From Chryseobacterium gleum (GTDB lineage Bacteria > Bacteroidota > Bacteroidia > Flavobacteriales > Flavobacteriaceae), in assembly GCA_945897915.1 (NCBI GenBank), contig CAMDGB010000009.1, positions 41-64,040 on the forward strand: 64,000 nt of DNA. The letters are read 5' to 3'. Position 1 is the first letter of the stretch. Every line of letters starts with the position of its first letter. Shown here piece by piece: positions 7,231 through 58,128 of this stretch. The notes beneath the pieces are model-generated. The model saw only the letters and a program-made list of their open reading frames with translations, was not told where the DNA came from and did not search any database. The translations under genes were made by a program, and so were the position numbers.

Positions 7231-7265
7231 GGGTATAGGGTGTGTGGTTTTGGGTAAAGGGGTTT
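7231..7265. repeat. Degenerate period-7 G-rich tandem array
   Basis: GGGTATA GGGTGTG TGGTTTT GGGTAAA GGGGTTT read directly. Confidence 0.6.
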
Positions 7266-7276
7266 TAAATTAAAAA

Positions 7277-7303
7277 TTACGATTTACGATTTACGATTTA
7301 CGA
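7277..7303. repeat. Heptamer tandem repeat (TTACGAT)x3 + TTACGA
   Basis: Perfect repeat read directly. Confidence 0.95.
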
Positions 7304-7410
7304 ATATTTAAATTGGGTAATTTTAACTATATAAGGCATATAAGTTAGTTTAAGGTTTGGGGAATGGGGTTTTAAATTATGAGTTGTTTATTTTCATTTG
7401 AATTTTTTAC

Positions 7411-7435
7411 ACCCCTAAAGTCCCCTCAAGGGGAC
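7411..7435. repeat. GC-rich palindrome ACCCCTAAA-GTCCCCT-CA-AGGGGAC (REP-like)
   Basis: Perfect 7-bp inverted repeat 7420-7426/7429-7435 in AT-rich intergenic DNA. Confidence 0.7.
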
Positions 7436-7457
7436 AATTCCTGCTATTGACTTTTTT

Positions 7458-7488
7458 ACTCATTGACTCATTGACTCATTGACTCATT
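7458..7488. repeat. Octamer tandem repeat (ACTCATTG)x3 + ACTCATT
   Basis: Perfect repeat read directly. Confidence 0.95.
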
Positions 7489-7559
7489 ACTTCCACGGCT
7501 TCGCCTGGTCAGTCCCGTTTTTGGGCCAACAATTTTTATTATAAACCTAGTTGGTTTAT

Positions 7560-8066
7560 TTATTCTTGTTGAAAAACCAATACGCCATCGCCTTCATACA
7601 ACTTGGTAATATGAAACGTGATGGTTTTTTGAATTTCGGTTTCAATTTTTGGTTTCAACTGTGCTAGGTACAATTGGTCAACTTCATCGCCTTCAATCAC
7701 TACATCTATTTGGCCCGAATCGATGCCTTTTGCGTAATCGCCTATTAAAAAAACACGGTCGATTGAACCAATTCTATCTACAATTGATTCAATAATATCA
7801 TCTAACCCAATGTGTTTTCTCACTATTTGTTGCAATAATGAGAAAAAAGGGTGTTGCTTATTTGCTTTATAAATAACTTTTGCTTCTTGCTCCTTGCGAA
7901 TAATAAACCCTGCTTCGGTCAGGTTGTTCAATTCTTTACGGATGGCGTTGGTGTTTTCGTGCATTTCTGTAGCTAGTCCTCTCAAATAGCCGTCATTTGC
8001 AGTATTAATGAAAAACTTCACTAATAAGCGCAATCTGGTTTTTGAGGTAATTAAATTCGCTAACAT
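7560..8066 (-). CDS. wHTH (ArsR-like) regulator fused to a minimal-nucleotidyltransferase-like domain
   Basis: N-terminal SKTRLRLL...YLRGLA...NAIRKELNNLTEAGFI wHTH; C-terminal VFLIGDYAKGIDSGQIDVVIEG resembles the MNT G[SD]xAxG...DxD motif. Confidence 0.7.
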   Translation of the reverse strand: MLANLITSKTRLRLLVKFFINTANDGYLRGLATEMHENTNAIRKELNNLTEAGFIIRKEQEAKVIYKANKQHPFFSLLQQIVRKHIGLDDIIESIVDRIGSIDRVFLIGDYAKGIDSGQIDVVIEGDEVDQLYLAQLKPKIETEIQKTITFHITKLYEGDGVLVFQQE

Positions 8067-8085
8067 ACATATTGGTTTTGAACAA

Positions 8086-8093
8086 CAAAAGTA
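8086..8093 (-). promoter_or_regulatory. Bacteroidota -7 promoter element (TACTTTTG)
   Basis: Matches TAnnTTTG, 19 nt upstream of the ATG at 8066. Confidence 0.6.
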
Positions 8094-8150
8094 CTCGTTT
8101 TTTTATATTAAAAAAAGATTTTACTAAAAATTAGATTCGTTTTCTAAATG

Positions 8151-8423
8151 TTAATTGATGGTGTTTTGGTTTTTAAGCCTTTTATTGAAGTTTTTTATGT
8201 GTTGTTTTAACATGTTTTTGTCTTCTATAGACAGCCTAACTCTTTTTATAGTTAGATTTTTATAGGTCACTTTTAGATAAAAGGTCCGGTACCATTTTTT
8301 AGTTACGCCTATTCGTTTTAAAAAATAAGTATCTTTAAACTCAATTGCTGTTTTACTAATGGTTGGCCAAAGTAGAATTGGTATACATTTTTTAAATATA
8401 ACAAATACTTCTTCTTCTGTCAT
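8151..8423 (-). CDS. Hypothetical basic protein, 90 aa
   Basis: ATG start with a TATATTTG -7 box at 8452-8459 on the same strand; no family recognised. Confidence 0.4.
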   Translation of the reverse strand: MTEEEVFVIFKKCIPILLWPTISKTAIEFKDTYFLKRIGVTKKWYRTFYLKVTYKNLTIKRVRLSIEDKNMLKQHIKNFNKRLKNQNTIN

Positions 8424-8659
8424 TTTGTAAATTTATGTGGGTTTATATCTACAAATATAAAAAAAAATAGTAGGCTATGCCGGTTATGTTAGGCCATCTT
8501 TAGCCCATCTATACTTTGGTTTTTACTTGTTACTGCGCCAAACGGCCCTAATTGACTTCAAATCAATACTTTAAATGTTTTAGGAATGTTTTATTTCGTA
8601 TAAAAAAGTTTGTTTTGCTTTCGCCTCTAAGAAAATTCAATTTATTTCAATATTCCTAA

Positions 8660-9141
8660 TCTTTCTCAGGAACAATTTACCTTGCTGGTTATAATGTAAC
8701 GCAAAACCGGGGCGTAATTTATGGGTTCGTCAAATGGAAGCGGGTTGCAATACTTCCTGAAACTTGTTAAATCAAAGAGTATTATAATTTAATAAGCAAA
8801 GAATTGGCTTCAAGTTTTGGCGTTACCAAAAATATTGATGCAAAAGTATAGGATATAAAAATTGAAATTGCCAATCTATTGATCTCGTTCATTAAAAACC
8901 ACCCCTGGTATCCTTCGCAAAAGATTACGAAAGAAAAAAACCACTATTCCCTACATTTTACCAGTGGCATCAATAGAAAATTGGTTGGTTAGGCTTGTGG
9001 AGGTGCAACATTAAAATAATTTATCCGGCCATTTTGCAAGAGTATTACAAAAAACCCCTGCGAAAAATACAATTAATTTTAATAAATCAAATCCGCTTAG
9101 TGTTCCGCAATATATTTGTAAATGCATCGGAAGAAATATAA
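8660..9141 (+). pseudogene. Degraded WYL/WCX-domain transcriptional regulator
   Basis: Manual translation gives GTIYLAGYNV...SFGVTKNIDAKV*DIKIEI...KNHPWYPSQKIT...GINRKLVG/WLGLWRCNIKIIYPAILQEYY, resembling the WYL C-terminal extension. Stops at 8768 and 8849 and a frameshift at 8981-8992. Confidence 0.6.
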
Positions 9142-9270
9142 TTTTTGAATTAAAATAAAAGATAAACTAAAAAAAACAGGACTATGTGTAAAATCAATGC
9201 CAATAATGTTTACTTTTAACTTCATTTTTAACCTGTGTACCCTAAAGTACTAGCTCAAAAATATTGAATT

Positions 9271-9996
9271 ATGTTTTGGATTTCAAAAAAAACTGTATCC
9301 TATAGTGAAGTATGGAAAGAGGGTTTTGTAGACCTACACAACCATTTATTACCCGGCATTGATGATGGAGCAAAAACCATAGCCGATACGCTTGACATGA
9401 TAGAAGCCATGCAAGAACTAGGTATTACTGAAGCCATTGCCACGCCGCACTCGTATCCGGGGATGTGGGCCAACACAAAAACCACCATCACCGAAGCCTA
9501 TGCAACAGTACCCCATGACTTTATTACCGGTTGCAGCAGTGAGTATTTTGCCGATAGTTCCTTAGTAGATCTGATGAACAACAAGGAATTATTGCCCTTA
9601 CCAAACAACCATTTACTGATTGAGTTTAGCATGATGAGCGCGCCCGTTTCGGGTTTGATGGATGTGCTTTTTACCTTAAAATTGAAAGGCTACCGTCTGA
9701 TTTTGGCTCACCCAGAGCGTTATTTGTACTGGGATACTAATTTGGTCATGTTTGAAGAATTGAAATCGTTTGATTTGGAATTCCAAATGAACGCGCTTTC
9801 TTTATTAGGCTTTTATGGCGATCGTTGCAAAAAAGTAGCCGAACATTTATTATCCGAAAATTACTACGGCTATCTGGGAACCGATTTCCACAACCTGCAC
9901 CACATTCACTACGCTAAAAATCATGCGTTTGCAGAAAAACACTTGAAAAACGTGATGCACTTGGTACAAGCCAATCAAACGTTTAGCTTAAAATAA
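9271..9996 (+). CDS. wzb: PHP-family tyrosine-protein phosphatase (CpsB/CapC/YwqE type)
   Basis: DLHNHLLPGIDDG, ATPH, LAHPERY, GTDFH motifs; adjacent to wzc. Confidence 0.92.
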   Translation: MFWISKKTVSYSEVWKEGFVDLHNHLLPGIDDGAKTIADTLDMIEAMQELGITEAIATPHSYPGMWANTKTTITEAYATVPHDFITGCSSEYFADSSLVDLMNNKELLPLPNNHLLIEFSMMSAPVSGLMDVLFTLKLKGYRLILAHPERYLYWDTNLVMFEELKSFDLEFQMNALSLLGFYGDRCKKVAEHLLSENYYGYLGTDFHNLHHIHYAKNHAFAEKHLKNVMHLVQANQTFSLK

Positions 9997-10010
9997 CACC
10001 CTTATACCAC

Positions 10011-10058
10011 AACAAAGAGCTACTATTGATCATCATGATCGCATAGTAGCTCTTTGTT
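10011..10058. terminator. Bidirectional intrinsic terminator between phosphatase and wzc
   Basis: 16-bp perfect inverted repeat AACAAAGAGCTACTAT / ATAGTAGCTCTTTGTT between convergent genes. Confidence 0.85.
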
Positions 10059-10070
10059 TTTTATAGTATA

Positions 10071-12467
10071 TTACGCCTTTTTAAACCATTTTTTTATGGT
10101 AGACCAAATACTTCTTTTATGACGTCTTTTGGTTTGATCTGCACCATAGCCATACCCGTAACCGTAGTTGTATTTGTAACTGTAGGAATAGCCATAGCCG
10201 TATTTATAACCATACCTTTTTTGCTGTCCTATATTGTTCAACACAATCCCTGCATTTTTGATTTTCTTCAAGGCTTGTAATTCGTTGATGAAGTGCAGCA
10301 AGTTCTTTTCAGTATGGTTGGCGCGGATCACAAAAACCATCATATCCGACAAGTTGGCAATCAAAGTGGTATCGGTTACCAATAAGGTTGGTGCGGTATC
10401 AACTAAAACATAGTCGTACTCTTTTTTCAATTCTTCCAGCAACAACTCAAAACGACCGTTGGACAACAACTCAGCCGGATTGGGCGGAATGGTTCCCGAA
10501 AAAATAAAATCCAATTTCAAATTATACTTCGCCCCTTTTTCGATGATATCGTCGAGTTGGGTCACCGTATCATGCAAATAATTGGTCACCCCTTTTTGGT
10601 GTCTGGAGATGTTCAACATCTTGTGCAACTGCGGATTTCTTAAATCGGCTCCTACCAAGATTACTTTTTTACCCAAGGTAGAAAATGTGATGGCCAAATT
10701 CATCGATACAAAGGTCTTCCCTTCCCCTTTGATGGTGGATGTGGTAAAGATGACTTGCGAAGCTTTGTTGTCTTTTATTAAGTAATTCAAATTGGTACGT
10801 AACATTCGGAACGCTTCGGATAAAACCGAACGGTCCAAATATTTGACCATTTTTTCGTCATCCGTAATGTGCGGAATCTCTGCAATCACCGGAATCTCTT
10901 TCACTACCGCTTGTACGTCTTTTTTACTGTGGATTTTAGTATCCATCATAAAATAGATATAAATAATTCCTAAAGGAATCCCTATCCCTAACAATAATGC
11001 GGCTAAATAAATAATGGCGTGTTTTGGACTGATGGGCACATCCACTGATTTGGCAAAATCCACCATCTTAATCGATGGATTGATGATCGCCAAGTTCACG
11101 GCAGCTTCTTCGCGTTTTTGCAATAAAATGATGTACAATGCTTCTTTTATTTCTTGTTGCCGCTCGATGGAACGAATGGCCTTTTCTTGAAACGGTAAGG
11201 CGGCATATTGTTGCGATTGCCCCAAACTGATCTGGCTGATGGCCGCAATTTTAGATTGCAACACTTTCATGTAAGTAGCTAAGGAAACCTTAATGTTTTT
11301 TTTGAGTTCCTTTTGGGTCTCTTTCAATTCCAACACGGCCGGGTGGTTTTCTCCTACCGATTGTAACAATTTCTGTTGTTTCAACACCAATTCGTTGTAT
11401 TGATCGATGATGGTAGCTACTTCCACTTGTTCTAATCCAATATTAGCAGGTAGCAGGTCATTGGATTTGGTTTTCCCCAAGGTTTCAATTAAGATTTCAC
11501 TCAATACCGCTTGGGTTTTGGCGGCATTCAATTCGCCTTTGGTGCCCGATTTTGAGGCCAAAAGCACTCCGGCATCGGCTTGAAAATTGGCCAAATTTTC
11601 TTTTTGCTTGTAATTGGCTTTATCTTTTTCTATCGAATCCAATTCTTTGAATAAAAATCCAAAACGTTCGTTGACAAAATTCACTGTTTTTTGGTGCACC
11701 AATCGGCGGTCATTAACCCCGTCTTGGTCAAATACTGCCGCCAGCATGTTGGCAATATCGGCGGCTTTTTTAGGATGGTTTGCCGAAACCGACAAGCGCA
11801 ACAATTCACTTTGCTTACCTACTGGCGTTACCGTTAATTGTGATTTCACCATTTGTATGGCGCGTTCTTTCTTTATTTTGACAATTTTATAATCGCCCAC
11901 TATTTTTTTAGCGGCAACTTCTTTTAAAAGTACGTAAAAGGGATGTCTTTTATAGGTGTACGTTGTTCCATAGCTTTTTAATTCTTTACTCCCTTCTATA
12001 TAGTATCCTTTTGGTGTCAATTCAAGGGAGAAGCCAATTCCTATTTCATTCACCTTTTCTGGTAGTTCGGTCCAATGTAGGGTAAACGGTGCCGTAGCGC
12101 CTATTTCAGTTTCCTTTATGTTCCCTTTGGTATAATATAGATTTTGAAGATCTAGGGTGTCCACTACTTTTTCAATCAACAAGGAAGATTGCAAGACCTC
12201 GGTTTCGTTTTCTAAATTAATTTTTCCTTTAGAAAAAAACGACATGGCATCCGTAGGCATTTTAAACCCTGAATTGTTGTTGTCTAATATTTTAACCACA
12301 TTGGAAGCTTGGTACACTTCTTGTGAATAGCGCAGGTAGAAGAAAGCAATCGTAAATGATAATATCGCGCCTAAAACAATCCAATGTAAAAAAGCGAGGT
12401 ATTTAAATATAAGCTCTTTAATATCTATCGAAGTAGACTGATTTTCTTGAAATTCTGATGACTGCAT
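10071..12467 (-). CDS. wzc: BY-kinase/polysaccharide co-polymerase Wzc
   Basis: Two TMs flanking a coiled-coil periplasmic region, Walker A GEGKT, VGADLR, VDTAP, C-terminal Tyr cluster. Confidence 0.95.
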   Translation of the reverse strand: MQSSEFQENQSTSIDIKELIFKYLAFLHWIVLGAILSFTIAFFYLRYSQEVYQASNVVKILDNNNSGFKMPTDAMSFFSKGKINLENETEVLQSSLLIEKVVDTLDLQNLYYTKGNIKETEIGATAPFTLHWTELPEKVNEIGIGFSLELTPKGYYIEGSKELKSYGTTYTYKRHPFYVLLKEVAAKKIVGDYKIVKIKKERAIQMVKSQLTVTPVGKQSELLRLSVSANHPKKAADIANMLAAVFDQDGVNDRRLVHQKTVNFVNERFGFLFKELDSIEKDKANYKQKENLANFQADAGVLLASKSGTKGELNAAKTQAVLSEILIETLGKTKSNDLLPANIGLEQVEVATIIDQYNELVLKQQKLLQSVGENHPAVLELKETQKELKKNIKVSLATYMKVLQSKIAAISQISLGQSQQYAALPFQEKAIRSIERQQEIKEALYIILLQKREEAAVNLAIINPSIKMVDFAKSVDVPISPKHAIIYLAALLLGIGIPLGIIYIYFMMDTKIHSKKDVQAVVKEIPVIAEIPHITDDEKMVKYLDRSVLSEAFRMLRTNLNYLIKDNKASQVIFTTSTIKGEGKTFVSMNLAITFSTLGKKVILVGADLRNPQLHKMLNISRHQKGVTNYLHDTVTQLDDIIEKGAKYNLKLDFIFSGTIPPNPAELLSNGRFELLLEELKKEYDYVLVDTAPTLLVTDTTLIANLSDMMVFVIRANHTEKNLLHFINELQALKKIKNAGIVLNNIGQQKRYGYKYGYGYSYSYKYNYGYGYGYGADQTKRRHKRSIWSTIKKWFKKA

Positions 12468-12473
12468 AAAAGC

Positions 12474-28071: not shown

Positions 28072-28449
28072 ATGAATGAATTTGCACTACTATTACTAGC
28101 TTTTTTAGCGATTACTTTTTTACAATCAGGATACGATAAAATTGCCGATTGGAACGGAAATGTAAGTTGGTTGAAAGGTCATTTTTCTCAAACTTTTTTA
28201 AAAAACCAAGTACCTGCAGCTTTGTTAACTGTTTTGGCTTTAGAAATTGTAGCCGGCGTTTTGTCGATTATGGGATTTGCTGAGAATATTATGAGCGGCA
28301 GAACCATTATGGGCGATTATGCTTGTATGGTTTCCTGTATAACGCTTTTGTTATTGCTTTTTGGACAAAGAATTGCGAAAGATTATGATGGCGCCAGAAC
28401 AATTGTTATTTATTTAATTCCTGCATTGTTGGGCGTGTATTGGCTATAA
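28072..28449 (+). CDS. DoxX-family membrane protein
   Basis: FLQSGYDK, hydrophobic helices, LLFGQRIAKDY. Confidence 0.75.
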   Translation: MNEFALLLLAFLAITFLQSGYDKIADWNGNVSWLKGHFSQTFLKNQVPAALLTVLALEIVAGVLSIMGFAENIMSGRTIMGDYACMVSCITLLLLLFGQRIAKDYDGARTIVIYLIPALLGVYWL

Positions 28450-28455
28450 ATAAAA

Positions 28456-28476
28456 CTACGATTTGGGATTTACGAA
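28456..28476. repeat. Short degenerate heptamer array CTACGAT TTGGGAT TTACGAA
   Basis: Same unit family as 7277 and 32659. Confidence 0.5.
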
Positions 28477-28479
28477 TTA

Positions 28480-28505
28480 AAAAACTCAGACTTTTCTGAG
28501 TTTTT
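28480..28505. terminator. Bidirectional terminator
   Basis: AAAAACTCAGA-CTTT-TCTGAGTTTTT between convergent genes. Confidence 0.85.
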
Positions 28506-28507
28506 TA

Positions 28508-30784
28508 TTAATACAAGCTTACATTAAACAAACGCAGTTCTTCCCAAGTGAATTGATTACCGTATTTTTCTTTTAAAACTCCCAAACCTTCTCCTTTATA
28601 ATCCTTAAAAACTTCTTGCAAGGTTGCAATTTTTTCGTCGGACATTACATCTGAGATGGTTAAGGCTTCCATTTGAATTAGCTTGATAAAATGTAAATAA
28701 ATTGTGCCAATTGTAACTTTACGCTTGGCCGCAATTTCCTCAATTGATAAATTTTCTTTCCAAAGATCTAAAGTGATTTCTATAGTTGCCTTTTTTGGTT
28801 CTATTGATTTGGCTTTTTTAGCTTTGGTTTTCTTACTAAATGTTTCCGAATAATCTTTGGCTACAAAGCCGTCAATTTCCTTGAATTTTTCAGATAATGA
28901 CGCTATTTTATTAATTTTATAATACTTCATTTCATCAGACGACATTGTGTTTTTATTGAATTCAATTCCGTTGACTAGATTTTTAACCAACAACATTGAT
29001 TTTTTCAATTGCAAAACCGTTTTTAATTGAATTTCCTCTAATTCTAATAGTTCATCGTGAAACATATTAGATTTTTTAAGGTTGCTAACTTCTGCAATTT
29101 TCAAAAGCAAGTCGGTTATCTGATAATCTAATGTTTTATAATAATATTGATAAGCCGCTTCGCATCTTTCCGCTAAAAACGGAATATCTATAGCATCTTG
29201 ATAACAAATTTTCTGAATTTGGTTACTAAATTTTTGTGATGAATCTAATAAAGCGCCTAGTATACTTTCGTTTTGTTGTGCCCAAATTCGGTATTTTGAT
29301 TTTGTTGAATTGGCTACTTCGTCATTATACGAAAATAAATGATTGCGCCATTGTTGTGCCAATTGTCTGAAATCGAAACTTTTACATAATTCTAATCGTA
29401 AAAAATGCTTCGTTTCTAATTCTAACGATTTCTCTAAAACAATTTCATCCGCTTTATTGTTGGCATAATTTAAAACTTCTGTGTCAGAAGAAATGCCATT
29501 TAATTGTATAGGAGAAAGTAAAATTAATCCTTTTAATGAACGAAGTCGGGATAAAGCAACATAGGCTTGTCCGGGCGCAAATACACGTGAAACATCTAAT
29601 ACGGCGTTATCAAAAGTTAAACCTTGACTCTTATGAACCGTAATTGCCCAAGCTAATTTTAAAGGATAATGACTAAATGTTCCAACAACCGTTTCCTCAA
29701 TCTCTTTTGTATTTGGATTTACCGAATATTTTATATTTTCCCAAGTGTATAAATCTACTTCCACTATTTTGTTTTCATCTTCAAAATAAACCAAAATTTC
29801 TTTTTCTTCTAATGAAGTAATTTTACCAATTTTTCCATTAAAATAATTTTTTTCAAAAGAGGTGTCGTTTTTAATAAACATGACTTGGGCGCCAACTTTT
29901 AAATCCATTTTTGGATCAATAGGATAAATTTTCTCTGGAAAATCTTCTACAATTTCGGGAAAGTAAGAAAGCGTTTTGGTTTTTAATTCTGCTAAAGCTT
30001 CTTTATTAATTTCGTCTGCTTTTGCGTTATGTGTGGTAACAATGATACAACCGTTATGGTCTTTTATATTAAATTTTGGGTTTACATATTGATTTAAAAT
30101 AGCAATATTCTCTTTGGTGATTTTGTTGTTTCGAAGGTTGTTTAAAATAGAGATGAACACTTCGTCATCTTGACGATAAATTTTATCTAATTCAATATAT
30201 AAAGGCGGATTTTGTTTTATTACTTGCGAATGAAAAAAGAACATGCCTTGGTAATAATGTTTTAATTCATACCATTCTTCTTGCTTAATTACGGGCGGTA
30301 ATTGCAATAAATCGCCTATAAAAAGTACTTGAACACCACCAAAAGGCGCATCAATTCGACGCACTTTTTGAAGCATAAAATCAATCGCATCCAACACGTC
30401 TGGACGAAGCATAGACACTTCATCAATAATTAGCAATTCTAAATTTACCAGCACTTGTTTTTTAGTGCCATTCATTCGGAAATGTTTAGTAATCGTGCTT
30501 TTAGTTTCAAATTTATATTGCTGCGAGTTGGAATAAACTTCCTTAAAATCAGGAATAAAAGCTGCAAAAGGCAGCTGAAACATTGAATGAATGGTAACGC
30601 CACCAGCATTAAGCGCAGCAATTCCGGTAGGAGCAACCACAACTGTGTTTTTATGTGAAGTGGCAATAATTTCTTTAAGAAGTGTGGTTTTTCCAGTTCC
30701 TGCTTTACCTGTTAAAAAAACAGATTTATTGGTTTGGTTGATAAATTGCAGGGTGTACTGAGCGGCTTTTGATAGATTTTTCAT
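28508..30784 (-). CDS. PIF1/RecD-like SF1B helicase with C-terminal HTH
   Basis: GKAGTGKT, DEVSM, GDLLQLPP, HKSQG, GQAYVALSR; C-terminal SIEEIAAKRKVTIGTIYLH HTH. Confidence 0.9.
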   Translation of the reverse strand: MKNLSKAAQYTLQFINQTNKSVFLTGKAGTGKTTLLKEIIATSHKNTVVVAPTGIAALNAGGVTIHSMFQLPFAAFIPDFKEVYSNSQQYKFETKSTITKHFRMNGTKKQVLVNLELLIIDEVSMLRPDVLDAIDFMLQKVRRIDAPFGGVQVLFIGDLLQLPPVIKQEEWYELKHYYQGMFFFHSQVIKQNPPLYIELDKIYRQDDEVFISILNNLRNNKITKENIAILNQYVNPKFNIKDHNGCIIVTTHNAKADEINKEALAELKTKTLSYFPEIVEDFPEKIYPIDPKMDLKVGAQVMFIKNDTSFEKNYFNGKIGKITSLEEKEILVYFEDENKIVEVDLYTWENIKYSVNPNTKEIEETVVGTFSHYPLKLAWAITVHKSQGLTFDNAVLDVSRVFAPGQAYVALSRLRSLKGLILLSPIQLNGISSDTEVLNYANNKADEIVLEKSLELETKHFLRLELCKSFDFRQLAQQWRNHLFSYNDEVANSTKSKYRIWAQQNESILGALLDSSQKFSNQIQKICYQDAIDIPFLAERCEAAYQYYYKTLDYQITDLLLKIAEVSNLKKSNMFHDELLELEEIQLKTVLQLKKSMLLVKNLVNGIEFNKNTMSSDEMKYYKINKIASLSEKFKEIDGFVAKDYSETFSKKTKAKKAKSIEPKKATIEITLDLWKENLSIEEIAAKRKVTIGTIYLHFIKLIQMEALTISDVMSDEKIATLQEVFKDYKGEGLGVLKEKYGNQFTWEELRLFNVSLY

Positions 30785-32636: not shown

Positions 32637-32652
32637 TGTTTCACGTGGAACC
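32637..32652. promoter_or_regulatory. parS site (TGTTTCACGTGGAACC)
   Basis: 15/16 to the 34607 site read on the reverse strand. Confidence 0.85.
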
Positions 32653-32658
32653 TGAAAA

Positions 32659-32722
32659 TTACGATTTTTGATTTTTGATTTACGAAACGTTTAAATCTCA
32701 AATCCAAAATCTCAAATCGTAA
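32659..32722. repeat. Inverted pair of heptamer arrays
   Basis: TTACGAT TTTTGAT TTTTGAT TTACGAA, 8-nt spacer, ATCTCAA ATCCAAA ATCTCAA ATCGTAA. Confidence 0.85.
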
Positions 32723-32728
32723 ATACAT

Positions 32729-34606: not shown

Positions 34607-34622
34607 TGTTCCACGTGAAACA
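34607..34622. promoter_or_regulatory. parS site (TGTTCCACGTGAAACA)
   Basis: Matches the canonical ParB-binding consensus TGTTNCACGTGAAACA; just upstream of the mnmG start. Confidence 0.9.
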
Positions 34623-34646
34623 CGTGGATAATTTTAAAAGTTTTTT

Positions 34647-34680: not shown

Positions 34681-35100
34681 CTATAGTTCCACGTGGAACA
34701 AACTTATTTTTTCGTTTTCTTTTGTGCGCATTTCTAATGCTTCTGTGTCTGATTTATCTTTGTATCCACAATAATGCAAAACACCGTGTGCTAAAACTCG
34801 CTTTAATTCATCTTCAAAAGAAACCATATACTCATTTGCATTGTATTTAACTCTTTCAACAGAGATAAAAATATCCCCACTAATTATATCACCTTCTGAG
34901 TAATCAAAACTAATAATGTCTGTAAACGTGTCGTGTTTTAAATATTGAAGGTTAATAGCGTGTAAATAATTGTCGTCACAAAAAATATAAGAAATCTCTC
35001 CTAAAGTTTTGTTTTCAGACGTTACAATAGTTTCTATCCAAGAAGCGAAACGCTCTTCGTGATCTAAAATAAAATCAGATTCGTAATTAAAACTAATCAT
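34681..35100 (-). CDS. ybeY: rRNA maturation endoribonuclease YbeY
   Basis: TDIISF and HGVLHYCGYKD (HxxxH..G.D) motif. Confidence 0.95.
   Translation of the reverse strand: MISFNYESDFILDHEERFASWIETIVTSENKTLGEISYIFCDDNYLHAINLQYLKHDTFTDIISFDYSEGDIISGDIFISVERVKYNANEYMVSFEDELKRVLAHGVLHYCGYKDKSDTEALEMRTKENEKISLFHVEL
34685..34700. promoter_or_regulatory. parS site inside ybeY 3' end (AGTTCCACGTGGAACA)
   Basis: Near-consensus; encodes the terminal FHVEL of YbeY on the minus strand. Confidence 0.85.
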
Positions 35101-38422: not shown

Positions 38423-38439
38423 TGATAAAAAAAATCCTT

Positions 38440-38505
38440 TTTAAAATTCAAATTTCCAAATTTTGATGTATTTGGAATTTGGAATTTTACATTTGGAATT
38501 TTAAA
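38440..38505. repeat. Inverted pair of TTTGGAA-type heptamer arrays
   Basis: TTTAAAA TTCAAA T TTCCAAA ... TTTGGAA TTTGGAA TTTTACA TTTGGAA TTTTAAA. Confidence 0.7.
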
Positions 38506-38532
38506 ATAGTATCTTTGACAAAAATTATTGTG

Positions 38533-40035
38533 ATGAACAAACCCGTTAGAGTACGATTTGCTCCTAGTCCAACAGGACCTTTACATATTGGTGGGGTAAG
38601 AACCGCGCTTTTTAATTATTTATTTGCCAAAAAACATGGCGGAACATTCTATATCAGAATAGAAGACACCGACCAAGCCCGTTTTGTAGCGGAAGCGGAA
38701 GATTATATTTTTGAAGCATTAGAATGGTTGGGAATTTCTCCAGATGAAACGATTGGAAAAAACGAAAAATTTGGACCATACAGACAGTCTGATAGAAAAG
38801 AAATTTACAAGCAATATGCTGATGAATTAATTCAATCTGGTTGGGCATATTATGCTTTTGATACGCCTGAGAAATTGGACGAACTTCGTAAAAATGCTGA
38901 AACGGAAGGAAAAACATTTATATACAATCATACCGTTAGAGAAAAATTAGATACTTCTTTAAATTTTTCTGACGAAATTGTAAAAACCCGAATTGCAAAT
39001 GGAGAACATTTCGTAATTCGTTTTAAAACACCTGTTAACGAAACCTTGCATTTACAAGATATTATTCGTGGCGAAGTACATTTTGATACTAATTTACTTG
39101 ACGATAAAGTCTTGTTTAAATCAGATGGAATGCCAACGTATCATTTGGCAAATATTGTAGATGATCATTTAATGGAAACCTCGCATGTAATAAGAGGTGA
39201 AGAATGGTTGCCTTCTATGCCTTTACACGTGATGCTATACAAGGCGTTTGGTTGGGAAGCTCCAGAATTCGCGCATTTGCCTTTAATTTTAAAACCTATT
39301 GGAAACGGAAAATTAAGCAAACGTGATGGAGATAAATTAGGATTTCCAGTATTCCCTTTAGAATGGAAAACAGCGGAAGGAACCTCGAAAGGGTACAAAG
39401 AAACAGGATTTTTCCCTGAAGCCGTAATTAACTTTTTGGCATTATTGGGTTGGAATGACGGAACAGAACAAGAAATATTTAGTTTAGAAGAACTTATTGA
39501 AAAATTCGATTTAAAACGAATTCATAAATCAGGTGCAAAATTTGATCCAGAAAAAAACAAGTGGTTTAATCATCAATACTTACAAAAACAAACAGATGAA
39601 AGTTTAGCCGAAGCGTTTAAAGTAATCTTAGAAGAAAAAGAAATTTCAACTTCTTTAGATGTTACAAGAGTAGTTACTTCAATTAAAGAACGCGCTAATT
39701 TTATAACAGAGTTATGGGATTTAGCCGATTATTTCTTTATTGCGCCAACGTCTTACGATGAAAAAGCAGCTAAAAACTGGAAAGAAGAAACGCCAGAAAT
39801 AATGAAACAAGTAATTAAGCAATTACAAAATATAGAAGGTTTTACATCAACAAATATTGAAACCCTTTTAAAAGACTGGATGACAACAAATGAAATTGGA
39901 ATGGGTAAAGTAATGCAACCGTTACGATTGAGTTTGGTTGGTGCTTTAAAAGGACCGCATTTGTTTGATATTATAGAATTAATTGGAAAAGAAGAAACAA
40001 CAAGCAGAATTGAAAAAGCAATTGCTTCTTTATAA
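38533..40035 (+). CDS. gltX: Glutamate--tRNA ligase
   Basis: RVRFAPSPTGPLHIGG (HIGH), KLSKR (KMSKS). ATG 38533 follows a TATCTTTG box at 38510-38517; the track's extension from 38479 runs through the repeat array. Confidence 0.97.
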   Translation: MNKPVRVRFAPSPTGPLHIGGVRTALFNYLFAKKHGGTFYIRIEDTDQARFVAEAEDYIFEALEWLGISPDETIGKNEKFGPYRQSDRKEIYKQYADELIQSGWAYYAFDTPEKLDELRKNAETEGKTFIYNHTVREKLDTSLNFSDEIVKTRIANGEHFVIRFKTPVNETLHLQDIIRGEVHFDTNLLDDKVLFKSDGMPTYHLANIVDDHLMETSHVIRGEEWLPSMPLHVMLYKAFGWEAPEFAHLPLILKPIGNGKLSKRDGDKLGFPVFPLEWKTAEGTSKGYKETGFFPEAVINFLALLGWNDGTEQEIFSLEELIEKFDLKRIHKSGAKFDPEKNKWFNHQYLQKQTDESLAEAFKVILEEKEISTSLDVTRVVTSIKERANFITELWDLADYFFIAPTSYDEKAAKNWKEETPEIMKQVIKQLQNIEGFTSTNIETLLKDWMTTNEIGMGKVMQPLRLSLVGALKGPHLFDIIELIGKEETTSRIEKAIASL

Positions 40036-48498: not shown

Positions 48499-50631
48499 AT
48501 GACCACAATCCAATTCATACAAAATCAAACCAATATTGCTGTAAAAAGCATTGAAGTTACCATACAATTACTTTCGGAAGATTGTACAATTCCGTTTATT
48601 TCTCGTTACCGAAAAGACCAGACAGGAAATTTAGATGAGGTGCAAATTGAAACCATTTCAAAATTAAACAAGCAGTTTATAGAAATTGTCAAAAGAAAAG
48701 AAAGTGTTTTAAAATCTATTGAAGAACAAAACGCACTTTCGCCAGAATTGAAATCTAAAATTAATGCTAGTTTTGATTTACAAGAAATAGAAGATTGGTA
48801 TTTACCCTACAAAAAGAAGAAAAAATCCAAAGCCGACACCGCTCGTGAAAACGGATTGGAACCTTTGGCTAAAATAATAATGTCTCAAAAAAATGATGAT
48901 ATTGAGTTTTTGGCCTCAAAATACTTAAACGAAAAAGTCACTAACGAAGACGAAGCTCTTCAAGGCGCTCGCGATATTATTGCCGAATGGATAAACGAAA
49001 ATATTTTCATTCGCAAATCTTTACGAAGAACCTTTCAGCGTAAAGCTGAAATTACTACTAAAGTTATCAAAACCAAAAAAGATGAAGAAGCCGCTCAAAA
49101 ATTTTCCCAATATTTTGATTGGTCAGAAAATGCTGTGAAAACGCCATCACACAGATTATTAGCGATGTTGCGTGCTGAAGCCGAAGGTTTTATCAAATTG
49201 AAGCTAGGATTAAATGAGGAAGACAAAAGCGAAGTTATTCGTTTTATAGAGGACAACTTAATCAAAACCAATAACGAAAGCGGCGAACAAATTGAAAAAG
49301 CGATAAAAGACAGTTATAAAAGATTGTTAGAACCTGCCATTTCAAACGAAACCTTACAAGAAGCCAAAACCAAAGCCGATATAAAAGCTATTGATGTTTT
49401 TGCAGAAAATTTACGACAGTTGTTATTGGCGCCACCATTAGGTGAAAAACGTATTTTGGCAATCGATCCAGGTTATAAAAGTGGTTGCAAATTGGTTTGT
49501 TTGGATGAAAAAGGCGATTTACTAAACAACGAAACCGTTTATCCGCACGCACCACAAAACGATAGCGCTATGGCGATGAAAAAAATCCGTTCTATGGTTA
49601 ATGCTTACAATATTGAAGCGATTTCTATTGGTAACGGAACGGCATCTCGCGAAACGGAGTTTTTCATTAAAAAAATTGCTTTTGATAAACCCGTTCAGGT
49701 TTTTGTGGTTTCAGAAGCAGGTGCATCGGTGTACTCGGCTAGTAAAATTGCGCGTGATGAATTTCCAAATTTCGATGTAACGGTGCGAGGTTCGGTTTCT
49801 ATTGGAAGACGCTTGTCTGATCCGTTGGCGGAATTGGTAAAAATCGATCCAAAATCCATTGGAGTTGGACAATACCAACACGATGTGGATCAAAATAAAT
49901 TAAAAGAACAATTAGATACTGTGGTAATGAGTTGTGTAAACGCGGTTGGCATTAACGTCAATACTGCTAGTAAATCGTTGTTGAGTTATGTTTCTGGAAT
50001 TGGTGAAAAAATGGCAGAAAACATAATAGCGTATCGTTCAGAAAACGGCCCTTTTGAAGACAGAAAACAACTAAAAAAAGTGCCGCGTTTGGGTGAAAAA
50101 GCGTACCAACAAGCCGCAGCATTTATTCGTATTAAAGACGGAAAAAACCCGTTAGATAATTCGGCTGTGCACCCAGAAGCCTATGCAGTTGTTGAAAAAA
50201 TGGCTAAAGATTTAGGTATAAAAACAAATGAATTAGTAGCGAATAAAGAAAAAATATCACAAATTTCTCCTGAAAAATACATTACTTCAGAAATTGGAAT
50301 TTTAACACTTAAAGATGTTTTAAAAGAATTAGAAAAACCAGGTTTAGACCCAAGAAAATCCGCTAAAGTTTTTGAATTTGACCCGAATGTTCGCACGATA
50401 AAAGATTTAAAAACCGGCATGATTTTACCAGGAATAGTAAATAACATTACCGCTTTTGGCTGTTTTGTGGATATCGGAACTAAAGAAAGCGGTTTGGTTC
50501 ATATTTCGCAATTAAAAGCAGGTTTTGTTTCCGATGTCAACGAAGTGGTAAAACTACACCAACACGTGCAAGTCAAAGTTGTTGAGGTAGATGAAGCCAG
50601 AAAAAGAATACAATTGACGATGGTATTGTAA
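48499..50631 (+). CDS. tex: Tex family RNA-binding protein
   Basis: TIPFISRYRK, YqgF-like AIDPG, SEAGASVYSAS, IGVGQYQHD, HhH and C-terminal S1. Confidence 0.95.
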   Translation: MTTIQFIQNQTNIAVKSIEVTIQLLSEDCTIPFISRYRKDQTGNLDEVQIETISKLNKQFIEIVKRKESVLKSIEEQNALSPELKSKINASFDLQEIEDWYLPYKKKKKSKADTARENGLEPLAKIIMSQKNDDIEFLASKYLNEKVTNEDEALQGARDIIAEWINENIFIRKSLRRTFQRKAEITTKVIKTKKDEEAAQKFSQYFDWSENAVKTPSHRLLAMLRAEAEGFIKLKLGLNEEDKSEVIRFIEDNLIKTNNESGEQIEKAIKDSYKRLLEPAISNETLQEAKTKADIKAIDVFAENLRQLLLAPPLGEKRILAIDPGYKSGCKLVCLDEKGDLLNNETVYPHAPQNDSAMAMKKIRSMVNAYNIEAISIGNGTASRETEFFIKKIAFDKPVQVFVVSEAGASVYSASKIARDEFPNFDVTVRGSVSIGRRLSDPLAELVKIDPKSIGVGQYQHDVDQNKLKEQLDTVVMSCVNAVGINVNTASKSLLSYVSGIGEKMAENIIAYRSENGPFEDRKQLKKVPRLGEKAYQQAAAFIRIKDGKNPLDNSAVHPEAYAVVEKMAKDLGIKTNELVANKEKISQISPEKYITSEIGILTLKDVLKELEKPGLDPRKSAKVFEFDPNVRTIKDLKTGMILPGIVNNITAFGCFVDIGTKESGLVHISQLKAGFVSDVNEVVKLHQHVQVKVVEVDEARKRIQLTMVL

Positions 50632-50671
50632 TTTGTTCTATATTTGAAAAAAAACTAAAAAAAATAAAAAT

Positions 50672-51016
50672 ATGGCAGTTTCTGAATTAATATTAATTTT
50701 AATAATAATAGTTCCAATAATAATAAGCTTTTGGAAACTTTTTGAAAAAGCAGGTAAACCAGGATGGGCAATTTTATTGCCTTTTTACAATATTATTGTT
50801 CAATTAGAAATAATAAGAAAACCGTGGTGGTGGGTATTATTAATATGTATTCCGTTTATAGGTTTTATTTGGCATATTTGGACATTAAATTTATTTGTAA
50901 AAAGCTACGGTAAAAAAGAAGGATTTACATTAGGGTGTCTTTTTCTTCCGTTTATCTTTTTACCTATTTTAGCTTTTGATAAATCATCAAAATATATTTA
51001 TGATTTGAATTCCTAA
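50672..51016 (+). CDS. DUF5684-like small membrane protein
   Basis: WKLFEKAGKPGWA..LPFYN pattern, four hydrophobic segments. Confidence 0.75.
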   Translation: MAVSELILILIIIVPIIISFWKLFEKAGKPGWAILLPFYNIIVQLEIIRKPWWWVLLICIPFIGFIWHIWTLNLFVKSYGKKEGFTLGCLFLPFIFLPILAFDKSSKYIYDLNS

Positions 51017-51067
51017 ATAGATGAAAATTAAATAAAAAATCTAAAAAAAAATTTCTAAATTTAAAAT

Positions 51068-51099
51068 AAAAATGTCCCGAAAGATATCGGGACATTTTT
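51068..51099. terminator. Bidirectional terminator with TCCCGA/TCGGGA core
   Basis: AAAAATGTCCCGA-AAGATA-TCGGGACATTTTT between convergent genes. Confidence 0.85.
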
Positions 51100-51289
51100 A
51101 TTTTTTATCATTTTCTAAATCATCTTCTTTTTTAGTTGCTGCAGCTTCATCCTCTCCTTTAGCTGCTTTTTTAAATTCTTTTATGCCGCTTCCTAAACCT
51201 TTCATTAACTCTGGAATTTTTTTTCCTCCAAACATTAACAAAATAAAGGAAACAATCAATATCATTTCGAACGGTCCTATTCTTCCCAT
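51098..51289 (-). CDS. tatA: Twin-arginine translocase subunit TatA/E
   Basis: TM helix, [23 protein letters not shown]. Confidence 0.95.
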
Positions 51290-51374
51290 AACAATTAATT
51301 ATTAATTTATACTACAAAGGTACATAAAAAATCAAAACACAAATAAAATTATTCTTTTTTATTGATATAACTTG

Positions 51375-51420
51375 TCCCGAATCTCGGGATTTACTAATTG
51401 GCACATTGACTAATTGTATT
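51375..51420. repeat. TCCCGA-ATC-TCGGGA palindrome followed by ATTG octamer array
   Basis: Palindrome 51375-51389; ATTGGCAC ATTGACTA ATTGTATT 51397-51420. Confidence 0.65.
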
Positions 51421-51443
51421 ATATTTGTATAAAATCAGGCGAT

Positions 51444-51923: not shown

Positions 51924-51934
51924 ATCCGACTATT

Positions 51935-53419: not shown

Positions 53420-53513
53420 ATGAAGAATTTATTAACTTTCTATACACAAAAAGCGAACGAAAACGGACTAAAGAATAAATTTATTACCTTTGTAGGTGAT
53501 ATAATAAAAATTA

Positions 53514-55199: not shown

Positions 55200-55203
55200 G
55201 AAC

Positions 55204-56160
55204 ATGAGCACAAATTCTCAAGAGCAGGAAATTGATTTAAGCCAAATCGGTAAAAGTATTTCAAAAGGGTTTAAAAAAGGAATAAATAAGTGTTTCGATT
55301 TGTTGTTTTTTATACAAAAGAAACTAGTAATTGTGTTTGTTTTATTGGTTTTTGGAGGCGGTTTAGGTTTTTATGTAGACAAAGAACCAAATTACACTAA
55401 TGACATTACTGTTTTTCCAAATTTTGGGAGTAACGAGTATTTGTACGATAAAATAAATTTAATTTCTTTAAAATTAAAAGAAAAAGACGAAGCGTTTTTT
55501 ACTAAAATAGGAATTAAAAACATTAAAGATTTTATTTCTATTGAAATTCAACCCGTAAACGGAATTTATAATTTTATAAATTCGGAAAGTCAAAAAAACA
55601 ATTTTGAACTGGTTAAATTAATGGCTGAGGATGGTGATTTAGAAAAAATAATTCAGGATCAAACTACCAGTAAAAACTACTATTTACACGGCATAAATAT
55701 TAAAACAGCCATAGCTTATCAACAAAAAGACTTAATAGACCCTATATTAAACTATTTACAGCAGTCGGAATATTTTATTAAACTTCAGAAAATTCAACAA
55801 AATAATTTAGAAGAAAAATTAGTAGCTAATAAGTTATTAATTACTCAGATTGATCAAATTGTTTCAAGTTTAAGTCAAAATAAAATAGGAAGCAGTGTTT
55901 CAATATCAGAAAACACAGGTATAAATGATCTTATTCAAAAAAAGGACAATTTAATTTTTGAAAACCAAAAATTAGCCACCAACCGATTAGAGTTTGAAAA
56001 AATAATTAAAGACCAAGATATAGTATCAAACCAAATGAATACAAGCGGAGCAAACAACAAAGTGAAATTTATTTTACCGTTATTATTTGTTTTATTTTAT
56101 TTATTATGGTATTGGTTTTCAAAAGTATATAAACAACAAAAACAACGCATTCAAGCATAA
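55204..56160 (+). CDS. Wzz-like chain-length determinant
   Basis: EIDL N-terminal motif, one TM near each terminus, coiled-coil periplasmic region; stop overlaps rfbB start. Confidence 0.55.
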   Translation: MSTNSQEQEIDLSQIGKSISKGFKKGINKCFDLLFFIQKKLVIVFVLLVFGGGLGFYVDKEPNYTNDITVFPNFGSNEYLYDKINLISLKLKEKDEAFFTKIGIKNIKDFISIEIQPVNGIYNFINSESQKNNFELVKLMAEDGDLEKIIQDQTTSKNYYLHGINIKTAIAYQQKDLIDPILNYLQQSEYFIKLQKIQQNNLEEKLVANKLLITQIDQIVSSLSQNKIGSSVSISENTGINDLIQKKDNLIFENQKLATNRLEFEKIIKDQDIVSNQMNTSGANNKVKFILPLLFVLFYLLWYWFSKVYKQQKQRIQA

Positions 56161-57167
56161 TGAAAAATATTTTAGTTACTGGCGGAGCCGGGTTTATTGG
56201 CGCGAACTTTGTTCCTTATTTTATAGTAAATAATCCTGATTATCATTTAATAAATTTAGACGCATTAACTTATGCAGGAAATTTAGAAAACATATCAGAA
56301 GTGGAAAATCATGAACGTTATACCTTTGTAAAAGGTGATATTGTAGATGGAGAATTCATAAAAAACCTATTCGAAAAATATCAATTTCATGATGTAATTC
56401 ATTTTGCCGCAGAAAGTCATGTTGATAATTCTATTTCTGGTCCAGAAGCGTTTATTAAAACCAATGTTTTAGGAACTTTTAATTTATTAGATACCGCCAG
56501 AAAACTTTGGATGACAGCACCTAATCAATACAAACCAGAATTTATAAATGCCCGTTTTCATCATGTTTCTACTGATGAGGTTTATGGAACATTAGGCGAA
56601 ACAGGTTTATTTGAAGAAACTACGCCTTATGCGCCAAACAGCCCATATTCAGCATCAAAAGCAGGTTCAGACATGATTGTTCGAAGCTATTTTCATACCT
56701 ACGGCATGAATGTGGTTACCTCAAATTGTTCCAATAATTACGGTCCAAAACAACATAACGAAAAGTTAATCCCTACTATAATTCGTAAAGCATTAACTGG
56801 AGAAAACATTCCAATTTATGGTGACGGAAAGAATGTACGTGATTGGTTATATGTTTTAGACCATTGTAAAGGAATTGAATTGGCTTTTAAAACCGGTAAA
56901 TCTGGTGAAACATACAATATTGGAGGAAGAAACGAACGTAATAATTTACAAATTGTAGATACCGTTTGTATCATCTTAAACCAATTAAAACCAAAAGCAA
57001 CAGGTAAGTACCAAGACCAAATTACCTTTGTAAAAGACCGCCCTGGTCACGATTTAAGATATGCTATTGACGCTACTAAAATCGAAATAGAACTAGGTTG
57101 GAAAGCAGATGAAAATTTCGAAACAGGAATTAAAAAAACAATTGAATGGTATATTAATAAGTTTTAA
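56160..57167 (+). CDS. rfbB: dTDP-glucose 4,6-dehydratase
   Basis: TGGAGFIG, HFAAESHVDNS, VSTDEVYG, YSASK, DRPGHDLRY. Confidence 0.97.
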   Translation: MKNILVTGGAGFIGANFVPYFIVNNPDYHLINLDALTYAGNLENISEVENHERYTFVKGDIVDGEFIKNLFEKYQFHDVIHFAAESHVDNSISGPEAFIKTNVLGTFNLLDTARKLWMTAPNQYKPEFINARFHHVSTDEVYGTLGETGLFEETTPYAPNSPYSASKAGSDMIVRSYFHTYGMNVVTSNCSNNYGPKQHNEKLIPTIIRKALTGENIPIYGDGKNVRDWLYVLDHCKGIELAFKTGKSGETYNIGGRNERNNLQIVDTVCIILNQLKPKATGKYQDQITFVKDRPGHDLRYAIDATKIEIELGWKADENFETGIKKTIEWYINKF

Positions 57168-57173
57168 GCTAGG

Positions 57174-57226
57174 AGTTAATAGTTGATAGTTCAACTTTTC
57201 ACTTTTCACTTTTCACTTTTCACTTT
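57174..57226. repeat. Head-to-head heptamer arrays (AGTTRAT)x2-AGTT / (ACTTTTC)x4-ACTTT
   Basis: Read directly between the rfbB stop and rfbA start. Confidence 0.9.
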
Positions 57227-57233
57227 AAAATTT

Positions 57234-58091
57234 ATGAAAGGAATTATACTAGCCGGTGGCTCAGGAACACGTTTACATCCTTTAACTTTAGCGGTAAGTA
57301 AACAATTAATGCCAATTTACGACAAACCCATGATTTATTATCCATTATCAACTTTGATGTGGGCAGGAATCAACGAAATATTAATTATTTCTACACCGCA
57401 CGATTTGCCTTTATTCCAACATTTATTAGGCGACGGAAGTAGTTTAGGATGTAAATTTGAATACGCAGTACAAGAGCATCCGAACGGATTGGCCGAAGCA
57501 TTTATTATTGGAAAAGAATTTGTAGGTAACGACAAAGTTGCTTTAGTTTTAGGCGACAATATTTTTTACGGAACAGGATTGGCCGAATTATTACAAGCAA
57601 ACAATAATCCAGACGGTGGAATTGTTTACGCTTATCATGTACACGATCCTGAACGTTACGGCGTAGTAGAATTTGACACAACCGGAAAAGTGCTTTCAAT
57701 TGAAGAAAAGCCAACAAGGGCAAAATCAAATTATGCAGTTCCGGGGATTTATTTCTACGATAATTCTGTAATAGAAATTGCGGCAAATATACAACCAAGT
57801 CACCGCGGCGAATTAGAGATTACCGATATCAACAAAGCTTATCTAGAACAAGGAAAATTAAAAGTAAGTATTTTAGACAGAGGAACTGCGTGGTTAGACA
57901 CCGGAACATTTCAATCGTTAATGCAAGCCGGACAGTTTGTTCAGGTAATTGAAGAACGCCAAGGATTAAAAATCGGAGCCATTGAAGAAGCGGCATACAA
58001 AATGGGTTTCATCAATGCAGACCAGTTGAAAAAACTAGCCGAACCTTTATTGAAAAGCGGTTACGGAACACATTTAATAAGTATTATTTAA
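57234..58091 (+). CDS. rfbA: Glucose-1-phosphate thymidylyltransferase
   Basis: [44 protein letters not shown]. The track's 17-codon extension is the repeat array. Confidence 0.97.
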
Positions 58092-58096
58092 AATTA

Positions 58097-58128
58097 ATTG
58101 GCACATTGCCACATTGTCAAATTGAATA
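58097..58128. repeat. Octamer array ATTGGCAC ATTGCCAC ATTGTCAA ATTGAATA
   Basis: Fills most of the rfbA-rfbC gap; 14 nt identical to 51395-51408. Confidence 0.75.

Follow-up and report, generated by a model that had tools for sequence, protein, structure and literature searches.

Seven- and eight-base tandem arrays at gene junctions of a Flavobacterium-type genome as candidate arms of junction stems

The gene junctions of one stretch of flavobacterial DNA raise the question of what short tandem words of seven or eight bases, spelled differently from place to place, represent. The stretch, referred to below as the window, comprises 64,000 nucleotides of contig CAMDGB010000009.1, is AT-rich (GC about 0.32) and comes from a 2.14-Mb genome of a Flavobacterium-type genus that is 99.9% complete (G000). 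Heptamer repeats have been known since 2007 to be over-represented in bacterial spacers, without an agreed role. A preliminary description of the window, made from its letters, flagged a series of such arrays and took them for footprints or targets of a transposase-independent process of small-gene insertion and excision, or of repeat-writing, by which surface-glycan operons are diversified. On balance, we favour a different reading, in which the arrays are the fast-evolving arms of stems at gene junctions, accompanied by single arrays in gene leaders, with some of the gene-less ones being remnants of lost passenger genes. Nothing shows an active insertion system.

The arrays were detected with Tandem Repeats Finder (TRF) and by direct reading of the letters, and their number in G000 was compared with two backgrounds. 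Against five 5th-order Markov shuffles of the whole genome, perfect arrays with at least 3 copies numbered 23 vs 0 for period 7 and 5 vs 0 for period 8, while at a TRF score of at least 36 there were 89 arrays of period 7, vs 7-13 in the shuffles. The second background was a 3rd-order Markov model trained on G000 intergenic DNA (256 kb, GC 25%). Here, intergenic arrays of period 7 were observed 80 times with 6.3 expected (maximum 14) and those of period 8 were observed 15 times with 1.2 expected; the corresponding figures are 230 and 206 for period 5, 62 and 35.5 for period 6, and 2 and 0.2 for period 9. The 7/8-base arrays are real and far above chance, and the enrichment is specific to periods 7 and 8, with periods 5 and 6 being enriched at most 1.7-fold. 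An enrichment over an AT-matched background, which the preliminary description had left to be checked, is thus borne out in intergenic DNA. In total, G000 has about 90-150 arrays, and 115 of 152 lie outside coding sequence even though, by a crude map of open reading frames (ORFs), only ~9% of the genome is non-coding. Dozens of words are used, the commonest family being ATTTACG / ATTTGGG / ATTTGAG with its complement (AAATCGT), into which the window array at 7277-7303 falls. No strand polarity (G-type words after stops, C-type words before starts) was seen in co-directional spacers, with counts of 14 vs 10 in their first 40% and 10 vs 10 in their last 40%, and triplets phased by ATTG, taken as a pattern, are barely more frequent than in shuffles (8 vs 2-6).

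The evidence that some of these arrays are arms comes from small genes. PF05635 / TIGR02436 genes, which encode Avd-like four-helix-bundle (4HB) proteins, are present in all 41 genomes sampled from the genus, at 1-10 each; G000 has two, both of which lie between complementary word arms, and the window has none. The pairing of the arms was computed for 29 4HB loci over 110 bases on each side of the gene, with the flanks of neighbouring genes as a control; here and below, stems are computed folds or duplexes scored by energy and z. The median duplex is -34.3 kcal/mol (z = -2.6) for 4HB flanks and -21.9 (z = 0.08) for neighbouring-gene flanks, with a Mann-Whitney p of 1.4e-6 that is overstated since the genomes are related. 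At 10/28 4HB loci the 5' arm finds its best partner in its own 3' arm, and at 16/28 the cognate arm ranks among the top 3; cognate pairs have a median energy of -27.7, non-cognate pairs one of -14.7. At one orthologous 4HB locus, found in G000 and seven relatives, both arms switch from CTAAG/CTTAG to CAAAG/CTTTG. GxxExxY genes, which occur in 31 of the 41 genomes, are likewise flanked by arms, with words such as CGCAAAG and CACAGAT, a median z of -2.7 and the cognate arm in the top 3 at 15/28 loci; a search of the G000 genome found neither GxxExxY nor DUF559 genes. Arm words vary between loci of one genome, and the cassettes are mostly placed at housekeeping junctions, for example groES-groEL and sufC-sufD. 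As far as sequence and predicted pairing go, two unrelated small-gene families are shown to be bracketed by complementary, co-varying 7/8-base arms across the genus, and the statement of the preliminary description that 4HB and GxxExxY genes are often bordered by such arrays holds in this genus.

The reading that we favour distinguishes two forms of array. In the first, two arrays in inverted orientation at a gene junction would pair as the arms of a stem. With a short loop, such a stem would be a hairpin without a gene (32657-32728 and 38440-38505), and with a long loop (~0.35-0.5 kb) it would carry one small accessory gene, 4HB or GxxExxY, as in relatives and at two G000 loci. The second form consists of single arrays without structure that stop shortly before a start codon, with rfbA and rfbC as examples, and that possibly have a translational role. 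Arms would grow and change by replication slippage, and pairing would be maintained because changes in one arm are copied to, or selected in, the other; the stem may act on the transcript (in processing, termination or insulation) or on single-stranded DNA. In the streamlined G000, most passenger genes would have been deleted, making some gene-less arrays remnants, while others would never have had a gene. Since many of the G000 arrays form hairpin arms of the type that enclose a small accessory gene in related species, a few are probably empty leftovers of this kind.

Table 1. Arrays, hairpins and conserved box of the window, with their surroundings and predicted folds (positions in the window)
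Positions	Strand	Feature	Basis	Surroundings and fold
7231-7266		Degenerate G-rich 7/8-base words (GGGTNNN type)	Direct reading; no TRF call	Directly 5' of the start of cytidylyltransferase gene 6807-7223 (-), on whose sense strand the words are C-rich
7277-7303		Perfect heptamer array TTACGAT, 3.9 copies	TRF and reading	ATCGTAA on cytidylyltransferase sense strand, 53 bases 5' of start; leader 7224-7345 (-) without structure, z = -0.76
7420-7488		Small G+C hairpin GTCCCC...GGGGAC (7420-7435), then octamers ATTGACTC, 5.4 copies (7446-7488)	TRF, reading, fold	Hairpin appears in fold; octamer array without structure
28456-28506		Weak heptamer tract (28456-28476), then strong bidirectional terminator-like hairpin (28479-28506)	Reading, fold	Between DoxX-like gene and convergent RecD-like helicase gene; tract of three units, about 60-70% alike; hairpin -15.5 kcal/mol, z = -5.0
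32638-32651		Conserved near-palindromic box GTTTCACGTGGAAC, upstream of methyltransferase gene	Cross-genus conservation	Adjoins hairpin 32657-32728, outside the arrays; fixed end of a variable segment
32657-32728	-	Hairpin of two facing heptamer arrays, arms 32692-32724 and 32659-32684	TRF, reading, fold	Between mnmG stop and methyltransferase gene; words GATTTTT facing AAATCTC (32659-32724); sense fold -20.1 kcal/mol (z = -4.3), antisense -15.6
38440-38505		Facing heptamer arrays, AAATTYC then ATTTGGA words	TRF, reading, fold	In divergent gap between 1109-aa ORF (-) and gltX (+); fold of 38423-38534 z = -1.8 (+), -2.6 (-)
51375-51416	+	Small hairpin TCCCGA...TCGGGA (51375-51389), then ~2.5 ATTG octamers including TAATTGGCACATTG (51395-51416)	Reading, fold	
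57174-57226	+	AGTTRAT words (57174-57193), then perfect ACTTTTC, 4.7 copies (57194-57226)	TRF, reading, fold	Fills rfbB-rfbA gap, ending 7 bases 5' of rfbA ATG (57234); 57168-57233 a short partial hairpin only, z = -2.2
58095-58124	+	ATTG-anchored octamers (TAATTGGCACATTGCCACATTGTCAAATTG), 3.5 copies at 58097-58124	TRF, reading, fold	Fills rfbA-rfbC gap, directly 5' of rfbC ATG; unstructured

Within the window (Table 1), the flagged arrays at 7277, 7446, 32659, 38440, 57194 and 58097 were recovered by TRF or reading, while those at 7231-7266, 28456-28476 and 51395-51416 proved weaker than described. Arrays facing each other had been proposed at three loci; clear facing-pair folds appear at two loci only, 32657-32728 and 38423-38534, and 57168-57233 has just its short hairpin. 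As had been noticed, 51395 and 58095 share an identical 14-mer, TAATTGGCACATTG, and a layout of a hairpin followed by ATTG octamers is common to 7420-7488 and 51375-51416. The core TTGGCACATTG occurs in 10 copies in G000 and in 3 copies on one contig of its closest sampled relative (G040), mostly within ATTG-phased arrays, and those ATTG arrays that lie near an ATG stop 5-25 bases before it. The flanking genes include the cytidylyltransferase gene, rfbB, rfbA and rfbC, but also mnmG, the methyltransferase gene, ybeY and gltX. The arrays show no specificity for glycan operons, and the tie to such operons drawn in the preliminary description does not survive the arrays at mnmG/methyltransferase and at the 1109-aa ORF/gltX junction.

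How these junctions look in relatives bears directly on whether the arrays mark empty sites. G040 is syntenic with the window from 16061 to 59523 at 80-86% nucleotide identity, and within this region it differs from G000 at twelve junctions. Of the six flagged junctions that could be tested, two contain a small gene in G040. The rfbB/rfbA gap there contains a 121-aa PF05635 gene between ATTG octamers that include TAATTGGCACATTG, and the counterpart of 28449-28508 contains a 102-aa GIY-YIG gene within a 15-base inverted repeat of its own; at both junctions, no words are common to the filled (G040) and empty (G000) alleles. A further GIY-YIG gene of G040 sits at a junction that is without an array in G000, and what else is inserted consists of ordinary genes or of array blocks without a gene. 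More widely, the junction 5' of rfbA is occupied by 4HB genes in three genomes (G010, G036, G040) and by GxxExxY genes in two others (G006, G011). The rfbA/rfbC gap, surveyed in 22 relatives, measures 0-93 bases, has ATTG octamers in some, other words in some and no spacer in many, and has no gene in any of them; one relative (L007) shares the G000 word family at this place. When metagenomes were scanned for alleles of the rfbA junction from the same species, only one contig, unrelated, was returned. Of the junctions with an array in G000 or G040, 6 have one in both genomes, 13 in G000 alone and 18 in G040 alone. Words are retained in some shared arrays, and at the gltX junction the G040 words (AGTTRGA) are unlike those of G000. 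This turnover exceeds copy-number slippage; variation in copy number only, the outcome against which the preliminary description had set its model, is not what the two genomes display. As an observation on the same region, at 50631-51120 G000 is itself the filled partner, with a DUF5684 gene (50672-51016), and G040 has only a 73-base terminator-like hairpin (AAATCCCAAATTCTAA / TTAGAATTTGGGATTT).

The mnmG/methyltransferase junction illustrates a stem that outlasts its spelling. No 4HB or GIY-YIG gene is found here in 22-23 relatives. The segment from the mnmG stop to the box forms a hairpin in most species of the genus, spelled with differing heptamer words, while other species have no spacer, and G040 has a diverged homologue of the G000 hairpin with an identical loop. 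Conservation of the box itself, GTTCCACGTGAAAC, at this junction extends over the genus and into other families of the order. A near-palindromic box, GTTYCACGTGRAAC, stands on both sides of mnmG, at 32638-32651 and in similar form at 34610-34628 and 34686-34699, and it looks like a regulator binding site.

The clearest pair of filled and empty alleles lies outside the window. In four relatives, groES-groEL holds a 4HB gene with arms of AAGC words. The 97-base G000 spacer matches the relatives' 5' arm at 18/21 and their 3' arm at 34/45 positions, with a short additional match to the end of the ORF. Being homologous to both cassette arms, the G000 spacer is a genuine empty allele and probably, as the simplest account, a deletion remnant. 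In the groEL tree the filled alleles are scattered, although a single-gene tree is too weak to polarise insertion vs deletion. The 4HB proteins, in turn, group by locus across species with support of 0.97-1.0, which argues that they are old residents, inherited vertically with occasional loss, whose moves are rare and old. The exception is the 4HB protein of the G040 rfbB/rfbA gap, which is very divergent and unrelated to those encoded 5' of rfbA in G010 and G036; because it is not orthologous to them, the rfbA junction has been occupied at least twice. A test of 293 junctions syntenic between G000 and one 623-kb G040 contig found small-gene fills at 2/19 array junctions vs 15/274 elsewhere (p = 0.30), a result that is conservative because the strict detector misses degenerate arrays. 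The notion of empty sites is thus upheld in part, by the two fills in G040 and by groES-groEL; it is not matched by shared words at rfbB/rfbA and 28449-28508, by any significant excess in the 293-junction test, or by 4HB or GIY-YIG fills at the rfbA/rfbC and mnmG junctions of 22-23 relatives.

Several observations weigh against the stem-arm reading. The flagged arrays at 7277, 7446, 51395 and 58097 show no structure. The stems are known here from predicted folding, and the fold data do not tell the RNA level from the DNA level. Among hairpin spacers, 81 fold better in the sense and 70 in the antisense orientation, with no G-U bias that would place selection on RNA, and 4HB arms fold better antisense at 22/29 loci, which is the same bias as that of ordinary spacers. 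In a control with non-orthologous arms, groES-groEL alone stands out, with no other empty spacer exceeding the control in its homology with the cassette arms. Objective criteria for an array or hairpin (z <= -2.5) flag 2/8 of the junctions that are filled with 4HB genes in relatives and empty in G000; given this count, the impression, gained by eye, of arrays at 6-7 of those 8 was set aside and is not counted as evidence. The p-values overstate the evidence because the compared genomes are related. Finally, the reading gives no reason for a unit of 7-8 bases. On the orientation bias itself, ordinary co-directional spacers of G000 fold better antisense than sense (374 vs 203), which fits selection against leader structure in a bacterium without Shine-Dalgarno sites.

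The rival explanations meet the same facts with less success. An active, transposase-independent system of small-gene insertion/excision or repeat-writing, diversifying glycan operons with the arrays as its targets or footprints, gains from the fills of G040 at two of six testable junctions and from the repeated occupation of the rfbA junction by 4HB and GxxExxY genes. It also gains from TAATTGGCACATTG, which borders the G040 cassette as well as two empty window junctions, and from a second ATTG array after that cassette, which has the same orientation as the array before the gene and resembles a duplicated array. However, array junctions are without a significant excess of fills among the 293, the 4HB genes cluster by locus, and arm words that differ between loci of one genome are unfit for a sequence-specific recombinase. 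Moreover, GIY-YIG cassettes have inverted repeats of their own that are not arrays, and both cassettes and arrays are found beside housekeeping genes. G000 has ~100 arrays, yet no match to an RVT_1 reverse transcriptase or to a Y1 transposase (PF01797) was found in this 99.9%-complete genome, and with both missing, neither repeat-writing by a retroelement nor spreading of the repetitive extragenic palindrome (REP) type is supported. We hold active insertion or repeat-writing, as put forward in the preliminary description, to be decidedly unlikely.

A neutral origin would make the arrays slippage-prone repeats of AT-rich spacers, with a mutational bias to 7-8-base units, no function and an incidental pairing around small genes. 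Fast gain, loss and word turnover between G000 and G040, the many relatives without any spacer at the same junctions, the over-representation of heptamers in distant phyla (PMC4692102; PMC4679880) and the lack of strand polarity and sense bias in G000 are all consistent with it. Slippage alone cannot, however, give complementary arrays hundreds of bases apart or co-ordinated word changes in both arms of vertically inherited loci, and the mnmG-junction hairpin persists while its words change; we regard such a by-product as unlikely. Single ATG-proximal arrays (ACTTTTC at rfbA, the ATTG octamers at rfbC, and others elsewhere) might instead be binding sites, present in several copies, at which a regulator of translation or transcription recognises RNA or DNA, as was proposed for TAACTGA repeats. 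The recurrence of TTGGCACATTG (10 copies in G000, 3 on one G040 contig), mostly in ATTG arrays 5-25 bases before an ATG, points this way, as do the unstructured nature of the ATG-proximal arrays and the same position of the TAACTGA repeats in Beggiatoaceae (PMC4679880). Yet ATTG-phased triplets barely exceed shuffles, most arrays consist of unrelated words that one factor could not read, and an Rfam scan of the window matched only a tRNA, with no family matching the arrays. Binding sites of this kind seem highly improbable to us.

Comparison with known systems places the arrays close to the intergenic heptamer repeats, of which they are, on the best reading, a variant. Such repeats are intergenic and over-represented in many bacteria, with GGGAATC / GGGGAYT in Xanthomonas and Nostoc, and Xanthomonas has about 70 convergent inverted heptamer pairs able to form stem-loops (Rehm 2015, PMC4692102). 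TAACTGA repeats of Beggiatoaceae stand just upstream of start codons, and other heptamer repeats occupy spacers of the flavobacteria Gramella and Aequorivita (MacGregor 2015, PMC4679880). Like these and the short tandemly repeated repetitive (STRR) sequences of cyanobacteria, the arrays have a 7-base unit in at least ~3 copies, are over-represented (80 vs 6.3; 23 perfect vs 0) and are mainly intergenic (115/152), often just 5' of start codons. Unlike that class, they have no single word of the lineage, with dozens of words plus octamers in G000, and none of the published words TAACTGA, GGGAATC and CCCCAGT is among the listed G000 arrays. The G000 words are not G-rich, so that no quadruplex is expected. 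A further difference is that small genes lie between the arms in relatives, a feature reported in neither PMC4692102 nor PMC4679880, and a full-text literature search on the protein family names, incomplete in coverage, found no paper linking the 4HB/GxxExxY families to such arrays.

A second comparison concerns the passengers. The PF05635 proteins, a family first noticed in intervening sequences of 23S rRNA, are homologous to the Avd protein of diversity-generating retroelements (PMC10053308). As in those intervening sequences, a PF05635 (23S_rRNA_IVP) ORF lies in the loop of an inverted-repeat stem, both in the relatives' cassettes and at two G000 loci; unlike them, all examined loci lie between protein-coding genes and the arms are tandem 7/8-base words. 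Intervening sequences of rRNA are excised by RNase III. By analogy, the array stems may be the mRNA counterpart of such sequences, with the arms zipping across a small selfish gene (4HB/GxxExxY) and the insert being looped out and perhaps cut by RNase III, a speculative idea to which we give a small but real chance. The looping out would limit the harm to flanking housekeeping genes, the tandem words would let distant arms pair in any register, and gene-less hairpins would be left after passenger deletion and may still act as processing sites. A diversity-generating retroelement is not at hand, in that G000 has no RVT_1 gene and the neighbours of the 4HB genes are housekeeping genes. REPs and bacterial interspersed mosaic elements (BIMEs) are short palindromes in spacers, often after stops within operons, that are thought to affect mRNA stability and termination. 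The arrays resemble them as short palindromic elements of intergenic spacers. REP copies, however, have a single consensus within a genome and are accompanied by a Y1 (RAYT) transposase, whereas the words of the arrays differ from locus to locus with no common consensus, and G000 has no such transposase. With integron cassettes (attC) they share small, mostly promoterless genes with imperfect, foldable inverted repeats and a presence that varies between relatives; in contrast to an integron array beside IntI/attI, the cassettes are single, dispersed over housekeeping junctions and bounded by tandem-word repeats on both sides.

These data tie heptamer repeats, in one genus, to a defined architecture of co-varying arms, which turns a statistical oddity into a testable structure. 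The arm architecture further suggests a way in which standalone Avd-like genes can persist within essential operons, and for annotation it accounts for many of the short spacers without annotation, and of the junctions of variable length, that Flavobacterium genomes contain.

Some further features were noted alongside. The sole small GIY-YIG gene of G000 (C8:75161-75485) lies between two copies of a tRNA 3' end plus terminator, a layout that, read from sequence, is the signature of tRNA-gene integration with target duplication. A second dispersed family of spacer hairpins, with the forms GATTGCTTCGTTCCTCGCAATGAC and GTCATCCTGAA...TTCAGGATC, often adjoins GIY-YIG genes and is found in groES-groEL of L128, L133 and L142 and at several G040 junctions. 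On G040 contig C35 (loci L096-L122; for example 547760-548307, 350855-351487 and 352501-353191), pairs of small genes occupy many junctions that are empty in G000; they resemble, by eye only, ParE/RelE-type toxin-antitoxin modules and have no 7/8-base arms. A sigma-54 promoter reading of TTGGCAC...TTGC was rejected on inspection, the -24/-12 spacing not being kept. Within the window, 8424-9270, which separates a small ORF from the gene at 9271, is a stretch of ~850 bases without an ORF of at least 70 aa and without an Rfam match. Arrays of a class other than the heptamers, with a 21-base period, TTGGGGTTC / AACCCCAA-type units and up to 9 copies, are present in G000 at C8:19772-19961, C1:10806-11045 and C45:6634-6703. 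Lastly, at C24:9949-11255 of G000, CAGCTGTTAGC is followed by AAATCCC/AAATCGT heptamers (up to 17 units) and then by a terminator hairpin, an arrangement that occurs three times around an HU-like small gene.

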